Assembly (NCBI GenBank): GCA_017508315.1
Contig: JAFVZE010000299.1
Location: 1 to 36,681, forward strand
Reading direction: 5' to 3'
Source: Kiritimatiellia bacterium
GTDB lineage: Bacteria; Verrucomicrobiota; Kiritimatiellia; RFP12; UBA1067
DNA length: 36,681 nucleotides
This document shows, in pieces, positions 20,787 through 31,634 of the stretch (its first letter is position 1; each line of letters starts with the position of its first letter). The position numbers and the translations under genes were made by a program. Under the pieces are notes generated by a model. That model searched no databases. It was not told the DNA's origin and was given only the letters and a program-made list of their open reading frames with translations.

Positions 20787-22550
20787 ATGAAACTCGATCC
20801 GACGAAGATGAAGGACTGGCAGATAGCCGAAGCCGCGGAAGAGACGCTGCGCCCGGTCAGGGAACTGGCCGCGGAGCTGGGACTTGCCGAGGACGAATGG
20901 CAGGCTTACGGCGACGCGCTCGCGAAGGTGGACGTCACCAAGGTGCTGAAACGCGTCGGTACGGGTCGCGGAGGCAAATACATCGATGTCACCGCCATCA
21001 CCCCGACGGCGCTCGGAGAAGGCAAGACCACGACCACGCTCGGTCTCGTGCAGGGATTGGGCAGGCTCGGCAAAAAGGTGATCGGCTGCGTCCGTCAGCC
21101 CTCGGGCGGCCCGACCTTCAACATCAAAGGCTCCGCCGCGGGCGGAGGTCTCGCGCAGGTGGTGCCGCTCACTTCGCTTTCGCTCGGGCTCACCGGCGAT
21201 ATCGACGCGATCACCAACGCCAACAATCTGGCGATGGTCGCGCTCAACTCCCGGATGCAGCACGAGCGCAACCACGACGATGCGTGGCTCGCCGAGCGCG
21301 GACTCAAGCGTCTGGATATCGACCCCGGACGCATCCAGTTCCGCTGGGCGATGGATTTCTGCGCCCAGGGGTTGCGCAGCATCGAAATCGGGCGCGGCGG
21401 AAAACTTGACGGTTTCAACTGCGAAAGCGGCTTCTACATCACGGTCGCCTCGGAGGTGATGGCCATTCTCGCCATGAGCGCCGATCTCGCCGATCTGCGC
21501 AGACGCCTCTCGAAGATCGTCGTGGCCTATTCCAAGTCCGGCGATCCCGTCACCGCCGCGGATCTCGAGGTCGACGGTGCGATGTGCGCGCTTCTGGTCA
21601 ACGCCATCAAGCCCACGCTCATGCAGTCGCTCGAAGGTCAGCCGATGTTCGTCCACGCCGGTCCTTTCGCCAACATCGCCATCGGACAGAATTCCGTCGT
21701 CGCCGACAGGCTCGCATGCGCTCTCGGCGATTACGTGGTGACCGAGTCCGGCTTCGCCTCCGACATGGGCTACGAGAAGTTCTGGAACATCAAGTGCCGC
21801 TGCTCCGGACTCAAGCCGGATGCGGTCGTGCTCGTCGCCACGGTGAGGGCGCTCAAGGCCCACGGCGGCGCGCCGGCGGTGAAGGCCGGGCTGCCGCTCG
21901 ATCCGGTTTATACGACCGAGAATCTGGAGCTGCTGGAGAAGGGCTGCGACAATCTTCTGGCGCACATCGACATCATCCGCCGCTCCGGCGTCCAGCCGGT
22001 GGTGTGCCTGAACGCATTTTACACCGACACTCCCGCCGAGCGCGATCTCGTGCGCCGCATCGCCGAAGAGGCCGGCGCGTCCTTCGCGGTTTCCGACCAC
22101 TGGCTCAAGGGCGGCGAGGGTGCGCTCGAACTTGCCGAGGCGGTCGTGAAGGCGTGCGAAGAATCGAACGGTTTTTCGTATCTCTGCGATCTGAACGAGC
22201 CGCTTAAAGACCGTATCGAAAAGCAGGTGAAGGAGGTCTACGGCGGCGACGGCGTCGATTACGAGCCGCTCGCGCTGGAGAAGCTTGAAGCGTATCAGGC
22301 GGATGCGGAAACCGCGGCGCTGCCGATTTGCATCGCCAAGACGCAATATTCGCTTTCCCACGATCCGAAACTTCTCGGACGTCCCAGGGGCTGGCGCATG
22401 CCGGTTAAAGACGTGCTCGTCTACCGCGGCGCCGGACTGCTGGTGCCGGTGGCCGGCGAGATCAAACTCATGCCCGGAACGTCGGCGTCGCCCGCCTACC
22501 GCCGAATCGACGTCGATGTCGAAACCGGAAAAGTCAAAGGACTCTTCTAA
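20787..22550 (+). CDS. fhs: Formate--tetrahydrofolate ligase
   Basis: VTAITPTALGEGKTTTT P-loop and long collinear Fhs-type sequence. ATG 20748 (ATGA overlap) is an alternative start. Confidence 0.9.
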   Translation: MKLDPTKMKDWQIAEAAEETLRPVRELAAELGLAEDEWQAYGDALAKVDVTKVLKRVGTGRGGKYIDVTAITPTALGEGKTTTTLGLVQGLGRLGKKVIGCVRQPSGGPTFNIKGSAAGGGLAQVVPLTSLSLGLTGDIDAITNANNLAMVALNSRMQHERNHDDAWLAERGLKRLDIDPGRIQFRWAMDFCAQGLRSIEIGRGGKLDGFNCESGFYITVASEVMAILAMSADLADLRRRLSKIVVAYSKSGDPVTAADLEVDGAMCALLVNAIKPTLMQSLEGQPMFVHAGPFANIAIGQNSVVADRLACALGDYVVTESGFASDMGYEKFWNIKCRCSGLKPDAVVLVATVRALKAHGGAPAVKAGLPLDPVYTTENLELLEKGCDNLLAHIDIIRRSGVQPVVCLNAFYTDTPAERDLVRRIAEEAGASFAVSDHWLKGGEGALELAEAVVKACEESNGFSYLCDLNEPLKDRIEKQVKEVYGGDGVDYEPLALEKLEAYQADAETAALPICIAKTQYSLSHDPKLLGRPRGWRMPVKDVLVYRGAGLLVPVAGEIKLMPGTSASPAYRRIDVDVETGKVKGLF

Positions 22551-23353
22551 TGAAAAGAAAAATCGTTCTCGTCGTCTCCCTGGCGGCCGGGCTGCTGGCC
22601 GCGGTGCTGACGCGCGTGTGCATCTCCGCCAAGGACGCGGAGGTGAAGGCGCTCAAAGACTCCATCAACCGGCGGTACGGAACGATGGAGGTTCTGTGCT
22701 TCGCGCGCGAAATCCCTTCGGGGAGCGAGCTCGCCAAATCCGACCTCGGGCTGAAGACGGTGCCGGCCGTCGGCATGCGCGGACAGGCGCTGACGGCCGA
22801 GAACGTCGCCGACGTGGTCGGGCGCAGGGTGCTTATCGGGCATAAGCGCGGGGATGTCGTGTTCTGGTCCGATATCGAAGGCGGCGATCCGTCCGCGACC
22901 GGACTTTCCGCCGACGTCAAGCGCCAGATGCGGGCGGTTTCGATCAACTGCACGGGGGCGGCGAGCGTTTCTTCGATGGTGCGTCCCAACGACCACGTCG
23001 ACGTCATCGGCACTTTCGATTTCGAAGGCGCCGGCGGCCGCCGCAATTTCGTGACCTGCACCATTCTGCAGAACGTGCTGGTGCTCGCCACCGGTTCCGA
23101 AACCGCGAAGTCGCGTCTGCGTTCGCAGGGGATCAGCCGCGCCTACTCCACGGTCACGCTCGAAGTGACCCCGCGCGAGGCGGAAATGCTCGCGTTCGCC
23201 GAGCAGATCAAGGGGCGGCTGGTGCTCACCCTGCGCAACCGCAACGACACTTCCTACGAGAAGGAGCTCCCCAAGGTCGATTTCGAGAAAATCCGCGGGG
23301 AGATCGAAGAGTTGAACCTCAAACGCCAGACCCAGAAACTGACGAACCGCTGA
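22550..23353 (+). CDS. cpaB: Flp/Tad pilus assembly protein CpaB/RcpC-like
   Basis: N-terminal TM helix, a SAF-like segment (IPSGSELAKSDL...GDVVFWSDI), then the CpaB/RcpC region (VSINC...VRPNDHVDVIGTF...VLVLATG...VTLEVTPREAEMLAFA). Confidence 0.75.
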   Translation: MKRKIVLVVSLAAGLLAAVLTRVCISAKDAEVKALKDSINRRYGTMEVLCFAREIPSGSELAKSDLGLKTVPAVGMRGQALTAENVADVVGRRVLIGHKRGDVVFWSDIEGGDPSATGLSADVKRQMRAVSINCTGAASVSSMVRPNDHVDVIGTFDFEGAGGRRNFVTCTILQNVLVLATGSETAKSRLRSQGISRAYSTVTLEVTPREAEMLAFAEQIKGRLVLTLRNRNDTSYEKELPKVDFEKIRGEIEELNLKRQTQKLTNR

Positions 23354-23354
23354 T

Positions 23355-25004
23355 ATGATTCTGACCTCGCTCATCGACGGCAATCGCGAAACCCGGGAGC
23401 TCGAAGACGGAGCCTATCTGATCGGGCGGGCGGAAAACTGCCGGATATGTTTTCCGTTTCCGGACGTCAGCGAGCGCCATGCCATTCTGACCGTCCGCGA
23501 CGGCCGTGCCCTGCTTGAAGATCTGCACAGCGCCAACGGCACGTTCGTCAACGGCGAACGGATCGATTCCGCCTGCAGGCTCGACGGTTCGATGGTGGTG
23601 CAGATCGGCTCGGGGATGTTCCGCGTGAGCGAAAGCGCGCCCGAGGCCGTTGATGAAGAGGCCGCGGAGCCGGAAGACGTTCCGGAAAATACGCCCGGGG
23701 ACGCTCCGGACGAAACGGCCGATCCGCTCAGAAATCTCCGGCGCAACGTCCAGACGCAGATCCAGATGGAACTTCTCAAGCGTATGGACATGAAGAAGCT
23801 CACCGTTCAGGGCGTGGACCGGGAAGGTCTGGAGGAAAACGCCCGCGACAGGATACGGCAGATCATCGACGAGGTCGTCGCCAACGGACGGCTTCCGCAC
23901 GGGATCGATCCCATCCGGCTGGAAGAGGATGTGTTCAACGAAGCCATGCGTCTGGGACCGCTGGAGGAACTGCTCGCCGATGATTCGGTCTCGGAAATAA
24001 TGGTCAACGGGCCGGAGAAGGTGTATGTCGAGCGCAACGGCAAACTGCTGCTTTCCGACTGCCAGTTCGCCGACGACGCGAGCGTGATGGCGGTGATCGA
24101 ACGCATCGTCTCGCCGCTCGGCCGGCGCATCGACGAATCGCAGCCGTATGTGGACGCGCGGCTTTCGGACGGCAGCCGCGTCAACGCGATTATCGCTCCG
24201 CTCGCGCTTTCCGGTCCTACGGTCACCATCCGCAAGTTCGCCAGAAAAGCGCTCACGCCGGTCGACTTCATCCGTTACGGCACCTGGACGAAGGGAGCGG
24301 CGGAGTTCATGCGGCTTTGCGTCGTTCTGCGCAAGAACGTGATCGTCGCCGGCGGAACCGGCTCGGGCAAAACGACGCTCCTGAATCTGCTTTCGGGTTT
24401 CATCCCCCCGGCGGAACGCATCGTCACGGTCGAGGACGCCGCGGAACTGCGTCTTCAGCAGCCGCATGTCGTCAGGTTGGAGGCGCGTCCGCCCAACATT
24501 GAAGGCAAGGGAGCCGTCCCTATCCGCGACCTCGTGAAAAACTGCCTGCGGATGCGCCCGGACCGCATCATCGTCGGCGAATGCCGCGGCGGCGAGGCGC
24601 TCGACATGCTTCAGGCGATGAACACCGGACACGACGGTTCGCTCACGACGGTTCACGCCAATTCGCCGCGCGATGTCATCTCGCGTCTGGAGACGATGGT
24701 GCTCATGAGCGGCATGGAGCTCCCGAGCCGCGCCATCCGCGAACAGATCGCCTCCGCCGTCGACATCATCATCCACGAATCGCGCATGTCCGACGGTTCG
24801 CGCAAAGTGACGTCGATAACCGAGGTGACAGGGCTTGAAGGCAGCCAGATCGTCATGCAGGAGATTTTCGCTTTCAAGCAGTCCGGTGTCGACGGGAACG
24901 GCAAGATCATCGGCGAAATGAAGCCGACGGGTTCGGTGCCGACATGGATCGACCAGCTCAAGAGCCGCGGCATAGAATTCGACATGGGGGTGTTTTCCGA
25001 ATGA
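23355..25004 (+). CDS. cpaF: CpaF/TadA-family secretion ATPase with an N-terminal FHA domain
   Basis: FHA motifs (GR...SERHA...NGTFVNG) at the N-terminus, then an acidic linker. Walker [13 protein letters not shown] and [33 protein letters not shown]. Confidence 0.88.
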
Positions 25005-25678
25005 CCGCATGGCTCGCCACGCTCCTGTTCGCCTTGTGCTTCGCCGGTGTCGCCTGGTGCATCGTCGGTTCGATCAGGATAAAATCCGGCTGGCAGAACG
25101 GCACTTCGCCGCTTGCGCGGTATCTCGACTTCCGCCGCCGCGAAGCGTTCAACGCGCAGCTCCCGGAGGCGCTCTCGACGATGTCGAACGCTCTCAGGGC
25201 GGGTTTTTCCGTTTCCCAGGCGTTCGATTCCGTGGTGGACCGCGGCGAGGATCCGATGAGCGAGGAGTTCCGGATCCTCCAGCAGCAGCTGAAGATCGGC
25301 ATGGGTTTTGAAGAAGCGCTCGAATCGATGGCGGGCAGAGTCGGCTCCGACGACTTGACTCTGGTCACGACCGCCATCCTCATAAGCCGCAAGACCGGAG
25401 GAAACGTCACCGAGATATTCGACAAGATATCCGAGACGATCCGCGGACGCATGAAGATCGAGCGTAAGGTGAAGTCGCTGACGGCGCAGGGAAGAATGCA
25501 GGGGATCATCGTTTCGGTTCTGCCGTTTTTCCTTGCGGCGGTGATGACGGCCATAAAGCCCGGACTCATGCTTCCTTTTTTTGCGAGCGCGGCCGGGATG
25601 CTGGCGATGCTGTTCACCGTCGCGCTTATCCTGATGGGATGGCTGATAATCCGTAAAATCGTCAAGATAGACGTATAG
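25001..25678 (+). CDS. TadB/TadC-type platform protein with a single T2SSF domain
   Basis: LPEALSTMSNALRAGFSVSQAF ... GNVTEIFDKISETIR ... KVKSLTAQGRMQG pattern of T2SSF domains. ATGA overlap with cpaF. Confidence 0.75.
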   Translation: MTAWLATLLFALCFAGVAWCIVGSIRIKSGWQNGTSPLARYLDFRRREAFNAQLPEALSTMSNALRAGFSVSQAFDSVVDRGEDPMSEEFRILQQQLKIGMGFEEALESMAGRVGSDDLTLVTTAILISRKTGGNVTEIFDKISETIRGRMKIERKVKSLTAQGRMQGIIVSVLPFFLAAVMTAIKPGLMLPFFASAAGMLAMLFTVALILMGWLIIRKIVKIDV

Positions 25679-25691
25679 TGCGTTCAGAAAG

Positions 25692-27065
25692 ATGCCGAAG
25701 ATGGGAAAGATGATTGAGAAAGCCCTCTCCTACACCACCGACACGAAGGAATGCGTGATCGCCCCCGGCGCGGTGGAGAGCGCGGCTAAAATGTTCACCG
25801 GCCTTTTCCCGGGCGCGGGCGAGGCGTATCTCGTGTTCGACCCCAATACGTGGAAGGTCGCCGGAGAGAGGGTTGATGCGCTTTTGAGCGCGGCGGGAGT
25901 CGCCGTGCGCCGCCATGAGCTCGGAGCCGACGGAAAGCCGTTTCATGCGGAGTACCGCTGGATCGAGGAGGTCCGCGGGAGGTATCTCGCCGCGTTTCCC
26001 GGGGCGAAGGTTCCGATGGTCGCCGTCGGCTCGGGGACCGTCAACGATATCGTCAAGCGCACTTCGGAGGAGGTCGGCGTCAGGTACATGGTCGTCGGCA
26101 CCGCCGCGTCCATGGACGGTTATACCAGTTTCGGCGCGGCGATCACCAGGGACGGCATGAAGCAGACGCTTTCCTGCAAAGCTCCGCTCGGCTGCATCTT
26201 GGACAGCCGGATAGCCGCCGCCGCTCCGAAGGAGATGACGGCCTCGGGGTATGCCGATCTGATCGCGAAAATCCCCGCCGGCGCCGACTGGATGCTTGCC
26301 GATGCCGCAGGCTCCGAGGCGATACATCCCGTTGCGTGGGAGCTGGTGCAGGATTCGCTGCGCGACGCGCTCGACAATCCGGCGGGCTGCGCGGCGGGGG
26401 ATGTCGCGGAGGTGGAGAAACTCTGCGCGGGACTGGCGATGAGCGGTTTTGCGATGCAGGCGATGAATTCCTCCCGTCCGGCTTCCGGCACCGAACACCA
26501 GATATCCCATTACTGGGACATGGAAGATCTTTCTTTCGGGGGAAAAACGGTGTCGCACGGTTTCAAAGTCGGGATCGGCACGTTGGCTTCGACCAGAACC
26601 CTGGAATTTCTGTTGAGCCGTGACATCGCGAATCTGGACGTCGAGGCTGCGGTCGCGGCGTGGTGGCCGGATTTCGAATCGCTCAAAGCCTCCTTCCCCG
26701 GAGTCTTCGGAAATCGTCCCGCGCATATCCGCCGCGCGGAACTGGAGATGGTTAAGAAATATTCGACCCCGCAGGCGCTTCGGGAGGAACTCGGCAACAT
26801 CAGGCGCGTCTGGCCGGAGCTTTCCGGAAGAATCAGATCCCAGCTGATGCCGTTCGAGGAGGTCCGCGCCAAGCTGAAGGCGGCGGGAGCGGCGTACGAG
26901 CCGGAGATGATAGGAGTGGACCGTCTGCGCTTCAGGGAGACGTTTGCCGGGGTTCCGTATATGCGCAGCCGCTATTTCGCGCTCGATCTCGTCGAACGGC
27001 TTTCGCTGATGCCGGCGCTCGGACGGGAGTTGTTCGGGGCGGGCGGAACATGGGAAGTCAGGTAG
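25692..27065 (+). CDS. Fe-ADH_2 / sn-glycerol-1-phosphate dehydrogenase-like (AraM/EgsA family) oxidoreductase
   Basis: GSGTVNDIVK, GTAASMDGYTS, SGTEHQISHYWD and SHGFKVG follow the G1PDH family pattern, with an extra C-terminal extension of about 100 aa. Confidence 0.6.
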   Translation: MPKMGKMIEKALSYTTDTKECVIAPGAVESAAKMFTGLFPGAGEAYLVFDPNTWKVAGERVDALLSAAGVAVRRHELGADGKPFHAEYRWIEEVRGRYLAAFPGAKVPMVAVGSGTVNDIVKRTSEEVGVRYMVVGTAASMDGYTSFGAAITRDGMKQTLSCKAPLGCILDSRIAAAAPKEMTASGYADLIAKIPAGADWMLADAAGSEAIHPVAWELVQDSLRDALDNPAGCAAGDVAEVEKLCAGLAMSGFAMQAMNSSRPASGTEHQISHYWDMEDLSFGGKTVSHGFKVGIGTLASTRTLEFLLSRDIANLDVEAAVAAWWPDFESLKASFPGVFGNRPAHIRRAELEMVKKYSTPQALREELGNIRRVWPELSGRIRSQLMPFEEVRAKLKAAGAAYEPEMIGVDRLRFRETFAGVPYMRSRYFALDLVERLSLMPALGRELFGAGGTWEVR

Positions 27066-27084: not shown

Positions 27085-27714
27085 ATGAAAGAATGGTATG
27101 TGAGAACCGAAGAAGGCAGCGTTTACGGACCGGCGGATGTCGATTCGCTCGTGGAATGGGCGAAGGACGGTCGGATCGCGCCTTCATCGTTCATTTCTAA
27201 AGACAGGATTTCGTGGGTTCCCGCCCAGACGATGGGCGAGTTGGAGATGAAGTGGCTGGTGGAAACGGAGCCCGGCAAGGTTTTCGGGCCGTTCAACCGC
27301 AAGGTCGTCATTTCGATTTTTGGCGACGGAAGCGTTCCGGCCGGTGCAAAAGCATACCGGCTGCACGAGTTCCCGGTGGACGAAGATCCGCCGCCGGTGG
27401 AGAAGATCGTCGAGATTCCGGTGGAAAAAATCGTGGAAGTCGAAAAGGTTGTCGAGGTCGAGAAGATCGTCGAAGTGGAAAAGGTGATCGAGAAGATCGT
27501 CGAGGTTGAGCCTAAGGCGCGGGTCGAACTGATTGTTCCGGAAGCGGTCGAGCCGGTCGGTGCGGAACCTCCGCCCAAGGCGAAGGATTCGCTCTTCGGC
27601 TCGTTGGGAAAGAACGGTTTGGCCGCGCTTGAGGCGCAGGCCCGTCGTGAATTGGCCGCGGCCAAGGGAGGTTTTTTCTCCCTGCCCGGCGGAAAGTTCG
27701 GGAGGAAGCGTTGA
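27085..27714 (+). CDS. GYF_2 (DUF4339)-like domain protein with (V/I)EKIVE repeats
   Basis: WYVRTEEGSVYGPADVDSLVEWAKDGRIAPSSFI..WVPA, then a second degenerate module, then 38 codons of EKIVE-type repeats and a basic tail. Confidence 0.7.
   Translation: MKEWYVRTEEGSVYGPADVDSLVEWAKDGRIAPSSFISKDRISWVPAQTMGELEMKWLVETEPGKVFGPFNRKVVISIFGDGSVPAGAKAYRLHEFPVDEDPPPVEKIVEIPVEKIVEVEKVVEVEKIVEVEKVIEKIVEVEPKARVELIVPEAVEPVGAEPPPKAKDSLFGSLGKNGLAALEAQARRELAAAKGGFFSLPGGKFGRKR
27397..27510 (+). repeat. In-frame coding repeat VEKIVEIPVEKIVEVEKVVEVEKIVEVEKVIEKIVEVE
   Basis: Imperfect repeat units of 12-24 nt read directly from the DNA. Shares atcgtcgagattccggtggaaaa with 28126-28148. Confidence 0.9.
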
Positions 27715-29138
27715 TGAACATCTCCAAATGGTATCTGCGAACCCAGGATGAAACTTTCGGCCCGGAAACCGGCGAACAGCTGGTCGCCTGGGCGAAACTC
27801 GGGCGCATCCAGCCCGGACAGGAGATTTCCGACGACAATATCATCTGGCGCCGGGTGGAGGAGGTGCCGTTTCTGGATATGCGCTTTTCCATCGATATAG
27901 GGGACGGCAATCCCCGCGGGCCTTTCAACAAGGCCGCCGCGCAGGCGCTGCTTTCGAGCGGCCGACTGCCGCCGACGGCCAGCATGGTCGAAGTGCGCGA
28001 GCCGTTTCCCGAGGAAACCGTCGACCGGGAGGAGCCGTCGGAAGCGGATGAAACGGCGGAGGGGGAGAAAGTTCCCGACGAGGCGGAGAAGGAAGTCGGG
28101 GCGGTGGAGAGGATTGTCGAGAAAATCGTCGAGATTCCGGTGGAAAAGATCGTCGAGAAGGAAGTGCGTGTGGAAATCCCGGTGGAGAAGATCGTCGAAA
28201 AGACCGTGATCGACGAAACGAGGGTGAAGGAACTTGAAGGGTTGCTCGCCGAAGAGCGCAGGCATACCGCGGATCTGCAGCGCCGGGTCGACGAATCGCT
28301 CGGGAACGCAGCGGCCGCCGCGCGTGAAGCTGCGGAAAAGGAAAGTTCCCTCTCGGTGCAGGTGAGCGAGCGCGACGGCAGAATCCGCGAACTTGAAGGC
28401 GCCTTGTCGGTCAAGGAGTCGGCGCTCAAAGATGCCGTCGACCGTGAAAACCTGCATGCGGAACAGATTCGCCGTCTTGAGGACGAACTGCGCCGGCTGC
28501 CGCAGGCCGCGAGCGAGGTCGCGGACATCCAGGCGGCGATATTCACGATAATGTCGCGGGAGTCCGAAGAGCTCGCCAGACTGGCCGAAATCGAAAAGAA
28601 GGAGTTCGATGAGTTCCGCAAGCGCCATCAGGAGCGGGTGGATCGCCTGCAGGAGCGGCGTCGCGACATACTCAAACGCTCGGGGTCGAACATCGAGGAG
28701 ATGACCCGCAGGGCGCTGATCGAACGGCCGGAGGATCCGCGCACCGCGCAGCTGCGCACCGAGCTCGACGAATTGCGCAGGATGCACGAAAAGGCGATGC
28801 GCGAAAGCGAAAGACGCATCGGCGAGCTCAACGGCAAGCTGCGTCTGCGGCAGACCGAAGAGGCCCGCGCGAAAGAGAATCTCAAGGATGTCACGCAGCT
28901 GCGCTCGGAGGTTCAGGCGCTGCGCGAACAGCTGCAGCTGCGGGAAAAGGAACTGCTCGCCGAGCGGCAGAAGAACGAAGAGCTCCAGCAGCGTCAGGCC
29001 ACCCGCCAGCAGGCGCTCATGGCGCGTATCGCCTCGCTTGAATCGCCGTCGATCGGGACCTCCCAGACGCTTTCGACGAATCAGAGCCGCGAGGCCAAAC
29101 AGGTGAAACTTCCGGGATGGATGAGACTGGGGCTGTGA
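27714..29138 (+). CDS. GYF_2-like domain protein with (V/I)EKIVE repeats and a long coiled-coil region (paralogue of the upstream gene)
   Basis: WYLRTQDETFGPETGEQLVAWAKLGRIQPGQEI..W, a second module, VERIVEKIVEIPVEKIVEKEVRVEIPVEKIVEK, then about 280 aa rich in heptad-like E/R/L/Q sequence. TTG 27711 is an alternative start. Confidence 0.7.
   Translation: MNISKWYLRTQDETFGPETGEQLVAWAKLGRIQPGQEISDDNIIWRRVEEVPFLDMRFSIDIGDGNPRGPFNKAAAQALLSSGRLPPTASMVEVREPFPEETVDREEPSEADETAEGEKVPDEAEKEVGAVERIVEKIVEIPVEKIVEKEVRVEIPVEKIVEKTVIDETRVKELEGLLAEERRHTADLQRRVDESLGNAAAAAREAAEKESSLSVQVSERDGRIRELEGALSVKESALKDAVDRENLHAEQIRRLEDELRRLPQAASEVADIQAAIFTIMSRESEELARLAEIEKKEFDEFRKRHQERVDRLQERRRDILKRSGSNIEEMTRRALIERPEDPRTAQLRTELDELRRMHEKAMRESERRIGELNGKLRLRQTEEARAKENLKDVTQLRSEVQALREQLQLREKELLAERQKNEELQQRQATRQQALMARIASLESPSIGTSQTLSTNQSREAKQVKLPGWMRLGL
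28104..28208 (+). repeat. In-frame coding repeat VERIVEKIVEIPVEKIVEKEVRVEIPVEKIVEKTV
   Basis: Second copy of the EKIVE-type repeat family, in the paralogous gene. Confidence 0.9.
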
Positions 29139-29139
29139 G

Positions 29140-30684
29140 ATGAACATACTGTTTGCCGTAATCGCCGCGCTTTCGATCTGGGACTATCCGGCCCGCCAGC
29201 CGACGCATGAGAAACTGCGCCGCCAGTTCATGGCGGCGATGAAGGAGGGCGATACGCCGTCGATGACGGATGCCTGCCGCAAAGGCGTCTCTCTGCTGCC
29301 CGACGATCCGACGTGGCGTTACAATCTCGCCTGTTCGCTGGCGTACTACAAGAATCCGGAACCGGCGTTCGACGAACTCGAAAAGGCGATCGATCTCGGT
29401 TTCCGCGATGCCGACGCGATCGAGCGCGACAGCGATCTCAAACGGATCAGCCGTCTGCCGCGTTTCCGCGAACTCGTCGATTACGCCCGCAGAATCCGCA
29501 CCAGACCGATCATGACCGGTCCGATGGCGAACGTGGCGGCGACGGGAATATTCGGCAAGACCGTTTCTCTGGGCGAGCAGAATCTGTCGTGGGACTTCGA
29601 CCACGGCTGTTTCGTCGCGAATCTGAAGCTTGCGCAGGCGTCCGCCGGGGGCAATTCCGGCGATCTTTATTTCAATCGCGACGCCCTGCATTCGGCGTTG
29701 CCGCTGGCGGATTTTCCGGGAATTACCGCAGTCCGGCTCGATCAGCAGGGACGGGAGCGGCAGATGGATCTCAATTTTCCGAATATGCTTTTCCCCTATC
29801 CCGTGTTCGGCAACTGTTCGCGGGCGTTCGTCGCCGGAAAATACTGGCGGTCGCTCTCCCGTGCGCTCACGACCATGGATTCGTGGCGGATGAAGGCGAT
29901 GGTGAAATTCTATCTTTCGAACCAGACATGGGTGTTTCCGTCCAACGCCGATACCGCGCCGGTGGGTACCAACGGCGATGTCTTCGCGTCCATCACCCCG
30001 TATTGGATCACGACCGCCGGCCGCAGTTATTCCGATCTGCCGTATCTGCGCGCGGCGCTTGAGGCGTCCCGTTCGTTCAGACCGGAAACGAAAAAGGCGG
30101 CGGTCGCCGCCGGATTGCTCGCGCCGACCGTTCAGACGCTGATCCGCAAATCGCTCAAGGGGGTGGATGACGAGGAGGACTACCTGACTTCCAAGGCCCA
30201 TCCGACGGCGTTCCCTCCCAATGCCGTCGAGATGATGCGTCTGTCCGCGGCCGCCGGAAAGATGAAGCCGGAGGAGATTCCGCCGCTTGCGATGATCGGA
30301 GTTACCACCATGCCGATGAAGAGCGCGGATCCCCGTCCGGAGCTTACGTACGCGAGCGCGTTCGCGTGGGCGTTCGTCCTCCGCGCCGATGCCGAAGAGC
30401 GTGTGTTTTTCATCAACGCCAGAGGCGCGCAGGAATTCGCTTTCGTCAAAACCCGCGGCGACGGCGTGGACGTGCGCATTGAGAAGACCTCTCCCGATAC
30501 CGCCAAGGTTCTGATCAACCGCAGGGGAATGTCGCCGACGAACCGGGTCGATGTCGCCGTGTTCGGAAAAAACGCCGCAACGGGATGGGGGGCGCCGAGC
30601 TACGTTTCGTTCGCCCGCATGGACAGCGGCGCGGCGTATTCCGATCCGGTGCTGACAACTCCGCCGCCGCCAGCCGAGAAATGA
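29140..30684 (+). CDS. Hypothetical protein: N-terminal anchor/signal, a TPR-like module, and a large unknown domain
   Basis: WRYNLACSLAYYKNPEPAFDELEKAIDLGFRDADAIERDSDLKRISRLPRFRELV is a common TPR-end pattern. I recognise nothing in the remaining ~390 aa. Confidence 0.6.
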   Translation: MNILFAVIAALSIWDYPARQPTHEKLRRQFMAAMKEGDTPSMTDACRKGVSLLPDDPTWRYNLACSLAYYKNPEPAFDELEKAIDLGFRDADAIERDSDLKRISRLPRFRELVDYARRIRTRPIMTGPMANVAATGIFGKTVSLGEQNLSWDFDHGCFVANLKLAQASAGGNSGDLYFNRDALHSALPLADFPGITAVRLDQQGRERQMDLNFPNMLFPYPVFGNCSRAFVAGKYWRSLSRALTTMDSWRMKAMVKFYLSNQTWVFPSNADTAPVGTNGDVFASITPYWITTAGRSYSDLPYLRAALEASRSFRPETKKAAVAAGLLAPTVQTLIRKSLKGVDDEEDYLTSKAHPTAFPPNAVEMMRLSAAAGKMKPEEIPPLAMIGVTTMPMKSADPRPELTYASAFAWAFVLRADAEERVFFINARGAQEFAFVKTRGDGVDVRIEKTSPDTAKVLINRRGMSPTNRVDVAVFGKNAATGWGAPSYVSFARMDSGAAYSDPVLTTPPPPAEK

Positions 30685-31634
30685 AGCTCGTCCTCGCACC
30701 TTTGGCCGGTTTCACCGACGCTCCCTTCAGACAGATGTGCTTCGAGGGCGGGGCGGATATGGCCTATACCGAAATGGTCAGCGCCGCCGGGCTCGCGCAC
30801 GGAAGTTCGCCCACGCGGCATCTGATGGAAACGCTTCCCGGCGAAGGGAAACTGGCCTGTCAGATATTCGGCTCCAGAGTTTCGGATGTGGCATATGCCG
30901 CGAAAATCGCCACCGAGACCGGGAGATTCCGCGAGCTGAATCTCAATGCCGGATGTCCGATGCCGAAAGTGACCCGCGAAGGCGCGGGGGCGAAACTCAT
31001 CGAAAACCCCCGTCTGATCGCGCAGCTGCTCAAGGCGATGACGGACAACACCGATCTGCCGGTCACGCTGAAAACCCGTCTCGGTCCGCATCCCGGACGG
31101 ACCAATGTTTTCGAGATCGCCGAAGAGGCCGCGCGCGCGGGCGCCGCCGGGATCATCGTCCACGCCCGCTACACGAGTCAGATGCACGGCGGACCGGTCC
31201 ATCTCGAAAAACTCTCGGAACTGGTGCGCCGCAGTCCGCTGCCGGTAACCGGAAACGGTTCGGTGACCAATGCCGCGGAACTCTCGGCGATGTCGCAATG
31301 CGCGGTGGATGCGGTCATGATCGGCCGCGCCGCGCTGGCGAAGCCGTCGCTTTTCTCGGAATTGAAAGGTGCGCCTCCGGAAAAAGCGTCCGCCGCGGAG
31401 ATGTGCGAACGGCATCTCGGCCACATTCTGTCGTTCCGCGAACAGTTGGCGCGCAGGTATCCGCTCGATCACGTGCCGTCGGCGGACGGATTTTCTTCGG
31501 TCAAGATGCATACGCATCTTTTCCGCTATTTCAACGGCAGACCCGGCGCGGCGGCGTTGCGCGCCCGCCTCAGCACGGTAAGAACACTCGCCGAGATCAG
31601 GGAGATAATCGAAAATGAAAAAAGTGTCGATTGA
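30681..31634 (+). CDS. dus: tRNA-dihydrouridine synthase
   Basis: LAPLAGFTDAPFRQM, EMVSA and LNAGCPMPKV (catalytic Cys) motifs. ATGA overlap with the upstream gene. Confidence 0.88.
   Translation: MKLVLAPLAGFTDAPFRQMCFEGGADMAYTEMVSAAGLAHGSSPTRHLMETLPGEGKLACQIFGSRVSDVAYAAKIATETGRFRELNLNAGCPMPKVTREGAGAKLIENPRLIAQLLKAMTDNTDLPVTLKTRLGPHPGRTNVFEIAEEAARAGAAGIIVHARYTSQMHGGPVHLEKLSELVRRSPLPVTGNGSVTNAAELSAMSQCAVDAVMIGRAALAKPSLFSELKGAPPEKASAAEMCERHLGHILSFREQLARRYPLDHVPSADGFSSVKMHTHLFRYFNGRPGAAALRARLSTVRTLAEIREIIENEKSVD

Follow-up and report, generated by a model that had tools for sequence, protein, structure and literature searches.

The GYF domain of the Myxococcus protein GltJ binds to a proline-rich stretch of AglZ, a coiled-coil protein, with an affinity in the micromolar range, and has a part in the assembly of focal adhesions (PMC11135422). 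The contact is made through the beta-sheet, a surface other than the one used by eukaryotic GYF domains; bacterial GYF domains typically lack the G-Y-F tripeptide, and in their usual layout the GYF domain is N-terminal, with a membrane or receptor module behind it and, in many cases, a zinc ribbon (PMC11135422). Alveolins, articulins and epiplastins are membrane-skeleton proteins of protists that carry V/E/K/P-rich repeats with a 12-residue periodicity, and in prokaryotes the only counterparts noted previously are the 'articulins' of Caulobacter (PMC4303705, PMC6212826). Here we analyse a locus that shares traits with both groups, on a contig of 36,681 nucleotides (nt) from a Kiritimatiellia bacterium (JAFVZE010000299.1, the whole of which is referred to as the window). 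Three consecutive genes, named A, B and C, are followed by a gene for a tRNA-dihydrouridine synthase (Dus), and their coordinates are given in Table 1. A and B encode paralogous proteins with a tandem GYF-type head and a repeat rich in V, E and K, while C encodes a protein with tetratricopeptide repeats (TPR). The functional unit is A-B-C(-Dus), more than the A-B pair, and we consider it somewhat better than an even bet that the products of A, B and C belong to a structural adaptor or scaffold complex.

The conservation of the block was followed in 80 fetched loci, with each ratio limited to the loci that had enough flank. A lies directly 5' of B in 64 of 67 loci, the exceptions being one locus from which it is absent (L034), one where it is degenerate (L078) and one where it is a fragment (L077). 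C lies directly 3' of B in all 76 loci that could be scored; the neighbourhood analysis that the preliminary description of this DNA had called for thus upholds A and B as a conserved pair and does not uphold the pair as an isolated unit. About two thirds of the loci have Dus next after C, while about one third have no Dus in the block, and the genes upstream of A vary from locus to locus. We read A-B-C(-Dus) as a unit because of this synteny and because the junctions either overlap or are 2 nt apart, with no promoter- or terminator-like sites inside the block beyond shuffled expectation. In a scan of one genome per species, 77 loci were recovered, all attributable to metagenome-assembled genomes (MAGs) of Kiritimatiellae from gut and rumen. 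Homologue clusters number more than 1300 for A and more than 2000 for B and are named 'hypothetical' or 'DUF4339 domain-containing' in Kiritimatiellae MAGs; a literature search found no paper describing these Kiritimatiellae proteins. Some Kiritimatiellae-like contigs (L031, L038, L041, L047, L061, L067 and L076) are filed under unrelated names, namely Gemmiger, Azospirillum, Lachnospira, Faecalibacterium, Barnesiella, Muribaculaceae and Anaerovoracaceae, probably as a result of bin contamination or mislabelling.

The junction between A and B reads cgT TGA TGa, with ac following, and the A stop codon TGA occupies positions 27712-27714. The overlap of this stop with the start of B, already pointed out in the preliminary description, amounts to 4 nt if B starts at TTG and to 1 nt if it starts at ATG. 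At the other end of the block, the stop of C and the likely start of Dus share the sequence ATGA at 30681. The longest open reading frame (ORF) for Dus runs 100 nt into C (30585-30684); since the Pfam Dus match begins at amino acid (aa) 37 of this longer ORF and since ATGA overlaps the stop of C, the true start is probably at 30681. Antisense ORFs cover the same DNA as A and B (27123..29147, 674 aa, and 27512..28621); their translations are of low complexity and they are therefore read as shadow ORFs of a GC-rich gene.

When the two paralogues are aligned by BLASTP, 36% of the residues are identical over 165 aa (E 1e-21), in a match that spans both head modules and the repeat and far exceeds chance; this alignment and the shared architecture agree with the earlier proposal of a duplicated pair. 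Both N-termini had been described as GYF_2/DUF4339-like. Indeed, A and B reach 27.1 and 27.6 bits with Pfam GYF_2 (PF14237), for which the gathering cut-off is 25.8, while neither Pfam nor NCBIfam offers a better assignment than GYF_2 for the heads. GYF_2 is likewise matched by 43 of 43 A-family members (best E 5.9e-10) and by 45 of 45 B-family members (best E 2e-8). The first module of A follows the pattern W-Y..T..G.VYGP....L..WA.DGRI.P, in which W4, G11, Y14, G15, P16, W25, R30 and P33 are among the positions that never vary in the family. The canonical eukaryotic GYF (PF02213) signature, W-x-Y...G-P-F...M..W...G-Y-F, is found in neither A nor B, and PF02213 matches 2 of 43 A-family members (E<=0.01). 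In A, which reads W-Y...Y-G-P-A...L..W...G-R-I, and likewise in B, the tripeptide G-R-I replaces the eukaryotic G-Y-F.

A second, degenerate module with a GPFN core had also been recognised in each protein, and profile comparisons bear this out. Using hhalign, module 1 and module 2 of the A family are related with 95.7% probability (E 1e-8), and module 2 of the A family is related to module 2 of the B family with 96% probability; within the B family alone, the comparison of module 1 with module 2 is not significant (0.8% probability, E 0.069). B was modelled as a monomer by AlphaFold2 (AF2) from a 45-sequence alignment, with a mean predicted local distance difference test score (pLDDT) of 77. 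In this model both modules share a strand-strand-helix-strand topology (aa 6-39 and 58-93, pLDDT about 80-85), with strands at 6-9, 14-18 and 37-39 and a helix at 20-29 in module 1, and strands at 58-61, 68-71 and 90-93 and a helix at 73-82 in module 2. When the model was searched against the PDB with Foldseek, the top matches were the GYF domains of GIGYF2 (7rup), GIGYF1 (7ruq), Smy2 (3fma), GltJ (7z3c) and CD2BP2 (1gyf). The head of B is, as modelled, a GYF fold. A sequence-profile search of the PDB with the A family gave no significant match (E 0.2-0.9), the top entries being GIGYF and GltJ (7z3c, E 0.72). Besides, no zinc-ribbon domain is found in A or B with Pfam and NCBIfam, and they do not have the zinc ribbon-GYF arrangement of GltJ. 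The preliminary description had stated that bacterial GYF_2 domains have no established function; this is outdated, as the GYF domain of GltJ binds AglZ (PMC11135422). By analogy, the heads of A and B are candidate proline-peptide binders, for which the tail of C and the PPP motif of A would be candidate ligands.

Downstream of its head, B has an acidic linker and the VEK repeat (aa 96-164), which are unstructured in the AF2 model, the repeat having a pLDDT of 31-41 as a monomer. Two helices follow (168-337 and 342-443, pLDDT mostly >90). The whole segment from aa 168 to 443 displays heptad-like register scores and contains 43% D/E/K/R; it is modelled as a long heptad-based helical rod and predicted to be a coiled coil. 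Its length of about 276 aa is close to the 280 aa or so assigned to it beforehand, when the protein had been described as ending in LPGWMRLGL. Within the coiled coil, the motifs LEDELRRLPQAASEVADIQAA and RPEDPRT are invariant among about 45 diverse members. The C-terminal tail, LESPSIGT..LSTNQSRE.KQVKLP.WMRL(G/K)(K/R/L), is nearly invariant in 45 members and has a low pLDDT; in the window it ends KLPGWMRLGL, and it is net positive with W/M/L.

Protein A is short, and its conserved elements are the D-x-D-P-P-P motif, a Pro-containing linker, the LAALEA.A.REL helix and the ..LFGRK end. In the motif, the region of which reads DEDPPPVEK, D101 and P103 are invariant and P104 is nearly so. The invariant residues of the tail are P157, P162, P163, F171, A181, L182, E183, A186, E189 and F205, while G206 and K208 are nearly invariant in the family alignment. 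The basic tail GGKFGRKR, with which A had been said to end, is confirmed and corresponds to the cationic-hydrophobic family consensus ..LFGRK. The presence of invariant or nearly invariant motifs in the coiled coil of B and in both tails points to specific contacts rather than to a generic coil.

No transmembrane segment is found in A or B, for which the maximum 19-residue hydropathy is 0.76 and 0.95, respectively. Pfam and NCBIfam detect no enzyme domain in either protein, and a P-loop (Walker A, G....GK[ST]) was not found in A, B or C. An adaptor or scaffold role for A and B is reasonable for these reasons. Both proteins are net acidic overall, with 36 D+E versus 30 K+R in A and 100 versus 83 in B. 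Matches to TrlF, XopZ, MreC and PfaA were set aside, being far under the cut-offs and reflecting coiled-coil or low-complexity composition.

The EKIVE-type repeat block reported earlier in each protein is present at aa 105-142 of A and 131-165 of B, and is composed of V-E-K-(I/V/R/P) four-residue units. At the DNA level, the repeat of A has an 18-nt period with 3.1 copies (27431-27485, TRF). The autocorrelation of the repeat peaks at lag 12 in the A and at lag 14 in the B of the window, and at 18, 26 and 36 in orthologues, with a base period of 4 throughout; its length among orthologues goes from 0 to 162 aa in A and up to 108 aa in B. The literal alveolin motif EKIVEVP is present in orthologues. 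With the Pfam alveolin-repeat family IMCp (PF12314), A scores 11.6 and B 15.7 bits, both under the cut-off of 21.1; an E<=0.01 is reached by 10 of 43 A-family and 21 of 45 B-family members, the best E being about 3e-6. At the level of sequence, the likeness to alveolins is likely to come from low-complexity convergence rather than from common descent. In one sublineage (loci L020, L022, L031, L041, L053, L061, L066, L069 and L073), A is about 290-335 aa long and has a coiled coil of about 130 aa in place of the VEK repeat, with the conserved head and tail retained. Because the block can be swapped in this way, the repeat is probably an exchangeable spacer or an oligomerisation/assembly rod and not an indispensable polymerisation core.

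The AF2 model of C (pLDDT 86.7, predicted template modelling score 0.86) comprises a 12-aa hydrophobic N-terminus, TPR at about 13-119, an alpha/beta domain at about 130-380, an Ig-like beta-sandwich at about 385-493 and a tail. NCBIfam detects TPR_END_plus at aa 61-113 (E 1.3e-13), while no Pfam family is matched at E<=0.001. A relaxed Pfam scan of 49 C members returned TPR families together with a weak ABhydrolase-like_N in 42 of the 49 (best E 2.7e-4), and in a profile search of the PDB only the TPR part matches (TEF30). The central domain has no match among the Foldseek PDB hits listed, where only TPR and Ig domain-level hits appear. Many polar residues of this domain are invariant, including D175, Y177, N179, R180, D181 and H184, as well as those in ...SNADTAPVGTNGDVFASITPYW.... 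As modelled, the domain could have an enzymatic or binding role that has escaped recognition. The N-terminus consists of the 12-residue hydrophobic stretch ILFAVIAALSIW, then a conserved DYP.R and several basic residues. Since a transmembrane helix would need a longer stretch and a basic n-region is absent, we lean towards a short membrane anchor that leaves the bulk of the protein in the cytoplasm. At the other end, the tail (A)PYSDP(A/V)LT..P.P..K is conserved and has low confidence in AF2 (in the window, aa about 495-514, PYSDPVLTTPPPPAEK); a domain that recognises proline could plausibly bind it.

If A, B and C build an adaptor or scaffold complex, a statement whose individual contacts are much less certain than its general form, B would dimerise via its coiled coil and the short paralogue A would co-assemble with B, or cap it, via the repeat/spacer region. 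The four GYF domains of each A-B unit would recruit short proline motifs, for which PYSDP.LT..P.P in the tail of C and D-x-D-PPP in A are the candidates. More tentatively, the assembly may be anchored to the inner side of the cytoplasmic membrane by the cationic-hydrophobic ends of A (..LFGRKR) and B (KLPSWMRLKR) together with the N-terminus of C; in charge and hydrophobic moment, both tails are comparable to the MinD membrane-targeting sequence. The resulting complex would be a cytoplasmic, membrane-proximal scaffold.

Several observations weigh against this picture. The GYF_2 scores in the window exceed the cut-off by about 1.5 bits only. The Foldseek E-values for GYF domains are weak (0.04-1.2), although the probabilities reach 1.0, and they are so because the query was the whole 474-residue B model. 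A is not strictly required, given that L034 has no A upstream of B and that the A of L078 is degenerate. The repeat lengths of A and B, compared because an in-register co-assembly might make them vary together, are weakly correlated (Spearman 0.39, without phylogenetic correction). The idea of membrane attachment is weak, being drawn solely from the charge and hydrophobic moment of tails of 11-15 residues. Finally, the hydrophobic N-terminus of C could alternatively be a signal peptide, in which case C would reside in the periplasm, out of reach of GYF heads in the cytoplasm.

Other readings of the locus were weighed on the same evidence. A and B could act as a switch or adaptor in the manner of GltJ and AglZ, with the GYF heads docking the coiled-coil platform on a proline-rich partner in an apparatus for motility, piliation or secretion, so that they would regulate the assembly of a machine rather than form a static scaffold. 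The sole characterised bacterial GYF domain acts in this way and has a long coiled-coil protein as its ligand, and the window itself contains a Tad/Flp pilus cluster a short way upstream of A. However, Tad genes do not accompany A-B-C in the other loci examined, A and B have none of the zinc ribbon, membrane or receptor modules typical of GltJ-like proteins (PMC11135422), and no MglA/MglB-type genes are visible in the window; we regard this reading as unlikely. Analogy with GIGYF, Smy2 and CD2BP2, combined with the Dus gene in the operon, might instead suggest an adaptor linked to RNA or translation. In structure, GIGYF1/2 and Smy2 have the GYF domains that match best, and in most loci Dus comes after C with overlapping stop and start; yet Dus is missing from a third or so of the blocks, the binding surface of bacterial GYF_2 domains is another one and G-Y-F is absent from them (PMC11135422), as with the G-R-I seen here, and Pfam and NCBIfam detect no RNA-binding domain in A or B. 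Such a role is very improbable in our view.

A filament-forming membrane skeleton, analogous in prokaryotes to the epiplast, would assign polymerisation to the VEK repeat; this repeat and the rod of B would together make up a lattice beneath the membrane, giving the cell its shape or stiffness. The IMCp matches within both families, the EKIVEVP motif of the orthologues, the articulin-like proteins noted in Caulobacter (PMC4303705, PMC6212826) and the resemblance of the A and B tails to membrane-targeting peptides are all consistent with it. Nevertheless, the two proteins of the window stay under the IMCp cut-off, and their repeat, only about 35-38 aa here, so variable elsewhere and replaceable by a coiled coil, fits a spacer better. 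The likeness is one of low complexity and possibly convergent, the repeat has a period of 4, with super-periods of 12-36, instead of a strict 12, and AF2 gives the repeat no structure. We find this lattice improbable, and grant the same slim chance to its boldest form, in which A-B-C build a sub-membrane skeleton with a true prokaryotic counterpart of the alveolin/articulin repeat, the VEK repeat is an ancient and widespread assembly module and the GYF heads tie the lattice to membrane proteins. Hardly any weight is given to a coiled-coil protein associated with the nucleoid or chromosome, whose basic tails might bind DNA. Some homologues (P0013 and P0432) are named 'chromosome segregation ATPase' by the Joint Genome Institute (JGI), and the C-termini of A and B are basic; still, neither A nor B contains a Walker A motif, Pfam and NCBIfam detect no SMC or ATPase domain in either, this annotation is a usual coiled-coil artefact, both proteins are acidic when taken as a whole, and neither par nor smc genes occur in the conserved block.

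The wider distribution of the head and of the repeat was examined using HMMER with the A-family profile against 1.84 billion representatives, which yielded 1657 proteins at E<=1e-3, 104 of them reaching E<=1e-30. The matches fall into three classes: A/B-like proteins, giant GYF-headed proteins and repeat-only proteins. The giants, from other Kiritimatiellia and from Lentisphaerales, are 650-1600 aa long and carry the two-module GYF head at the N-terminus, at the C-terminus or at both; examples are P0381 (1587 aa), P0389 (1311 aa), P0414 (831 aa, L081 7332-9827, from an environmental Kiritimatiellia MAG) and P0436 (1286 aa, in a cluster from Lentisphaerales). P0381, P0414 and P0436 carry no annotation. 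The giants are rich in Ala, Glu, Leu and Arg, GYF_2 is their sole Pfam domain, and the three sequences inspected look like coiled coil between the heads. They share with A and B the two-module GYF head (profile about 4-93, E down to 1e-57), here joined to long coiled coils, and differ from them in being single large proteins with no VEK repeat and no A/B split. The combination of a GYF head with a rod thus recurs. In the one giant locus examined, that of P0414, no C-like neighbour is present, so that, as far as one locus goes, C is specific to the A/B lineage.

The repeat-only proteins, many of them bacterial (P0393, P0401, P0406, P0418, P0437, P0447, P0476, P0477, P0486, P0496 and P0502), have an apparently membrane-spanning hydrophobic segment at the N-terminus, in addition to a coiled coil, (VEKIVEKRVEVP)n repeats and, at the C-terminus, a helix-hairpin-helix / DUF4332 domain. 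Several of them pass the IMCp cut-off, such as P0393 with 60 bits and P0447 with 39 bits, and P0461, of the same class, looks like a eukaryotic alveolin. The junction between repeat and coiled coil in these proteins, VEKxV(E/D)(D/E)xxR(V/I)xxLxxE, resembles the junction in B. JGI names their helix-hairpin-helix / DUF4332 domain 'flap endonuclease-1-like 5' DNA nuclease'.

The window is a chromosomal segment of a gut or rumen member of the Kiritimatiellae, of uniform GC content (about 60%) with all genes on the + strand. It contains housekeeping genes (LptF/G, LpxA, Mur ligase, FTHFS, Der, TyrRS, CMP kinase and Dus); on account of these neighbours, the uniform GC and the single-strand orientation, a mobile element or defence island was rejected. 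A partial Tad/Flp pilus cluster lies upstream of A (22550-25678). Between this cluster and A, and adjoining the latter, is a gene for an Fe-ADH_2 protein of 457 aa (25692-27065), an AraM/G1PDH-like enzyme in a bacterium; in NCBIfam it comes closest to NAD(P)-dependent glycerol-1-phosphate dehydrogenase, with 128.6 bits, far below the equivalog cut-off of 413 bits, and the product is longer than the 350-position profile. Neither the Tad genes nor the Fe-ADH_2 gene is conserved beside A-B-C in any other locus examined, and a functional link of A-B to them was rejected on this ground; since the upstream genes differ between loci, both neighbours are taken as incidental.

Table 1. Features of the A-B-C(-Dus) block and of the upstream pilus cluster, in positions of the window
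Feature	Position	Strand	Details
RcpC/CpaB	22550-23353		Tad/Flp cluster upstream of A
CpaF-type ATPase with N-terminal FHA domain	23355-25004		Tad/Flp cluster upstream of A
TadB-like T2SSF protein	24944-25678		Tad/Flp cluster upstream of A
Gene A	27085..27714	+	ATG start, 209 aa (ORF list)
A, GYF_2 module 1	27094..27243	+	aa 4-53, Pfam profile positions 1-50 of 50
A, degenerate GYF_2-like module 2	27244..27378	+	aa 54-98, MKWLVETEPGKVFGPFNR..., GPFN core
A, D-x-D-P-P-P motif, then VEKIVE repeat	27379..27510	+	motif aa 99-104, repeat aa 105-142
A, tail	27511..27711	+	Pro linker PE.VEP....PP, helix LAALEA.A.REL, end ..FGRKR
Gene B	27711/27714..29138	+	475 aa from TTG 27711, or 474 aa from ATG 27714
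B, tandem GYF_2 head	27729..28004	+	aa 6-97 counted from ATG 27714
B, VEK repeat	28104..28208	+	aa 131-165, VERIVEKIVEIPVEKIVEKEVRVEIPVEKIVEKTV, after acidic linker aa 98-130
B, coiled-coil rod	28215..29042	+	aa 168-443, ~276 aa
B, conserved C-terminal tail	29043..29135	+	
Gene C	29140..30684	+	514 aa; start 2 nt past the B stop
Dus (tRNA-dihydrouridine synthase)	30681..31634	+	Pfam Dus 1.3e-64; likely start ATG 30681

Kiritimatiellae are abundant and almost uncultured in gut and rumen, and their cell biology is little known. A three-protein module that has no enzyme domain and is strongly conserved throughout the lineage offers an entry point to the organisation of envelope or cytoplasm in these Planctomycetes-Verrucomicrobia-Chlamydiae (PVC) bacteria. 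Concomitantly, bacterial GYF_2, with GltJ as its one characterised case, gains a second design in which tandem heads are placed on coiled-coil rods. Alveolin-like VEK repeats are common in bacterial coiled-coil proteins, and this bears on the origin, or the convergence, of protist membrane-skeleton proteins.

Altogether, A and B belong to known kinds of protein, bacterial GYF_2 adaptors and coiled-coil scaffolds, to which they add an unusual alveolin-like repeat and, in C, a previously unnoticed and invariable partner. With GltJ and AglZ (7z3c) they share a GYF_2-type domain without G-Y-F, combined with a long coiled coil and proline-rich segments. In Myxococcus, however, it is a membrane protein that carries the GYF domain, along with a zinc ribbon, and the coiled-coil protein AglZ is the ligand of that domain, whereas in A and B tandem GYF modules are carried by soluble proteins, in B on the same chain as the coiled coil, and zinc ribbon, transmembrane segment and Mgl/Glt genes are all lacking. 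Alveolins, articulins and epiplastins are alike in their Val/Glu/Lys/Ile/Pro repeats, in the EKIVEVP of the orthologues, in a head-repeat-tail layout and in the significant IMCp scores of many A/B orthologues; A and B differ from them in being bacterial, in scoring below the IMCp threshold, in a periodicity that is not strictly 12, and in a repeat block that is short, variable and, in A of one sublineage, dispensable. The label 'cytoskeleton-like', which the preliminary description offered for the pair, is an inference. B is probably a structural or organising protein like the coiled-coil-rich scaffolds of bacteria (crescentin, FilP/Scy, DivIVA and AglZ/FrzS): it is predicted to have a long two-segment helical rod between a non-helical head and a non-helical tail, and it has no enzymatic domain. 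Unlike these proteins, with which it has no sequence relationship, B bears a tandem GYF_2 head and a VEK repeat ahead of the rod, and is encoded together with a short paralogue and a TPR protein.

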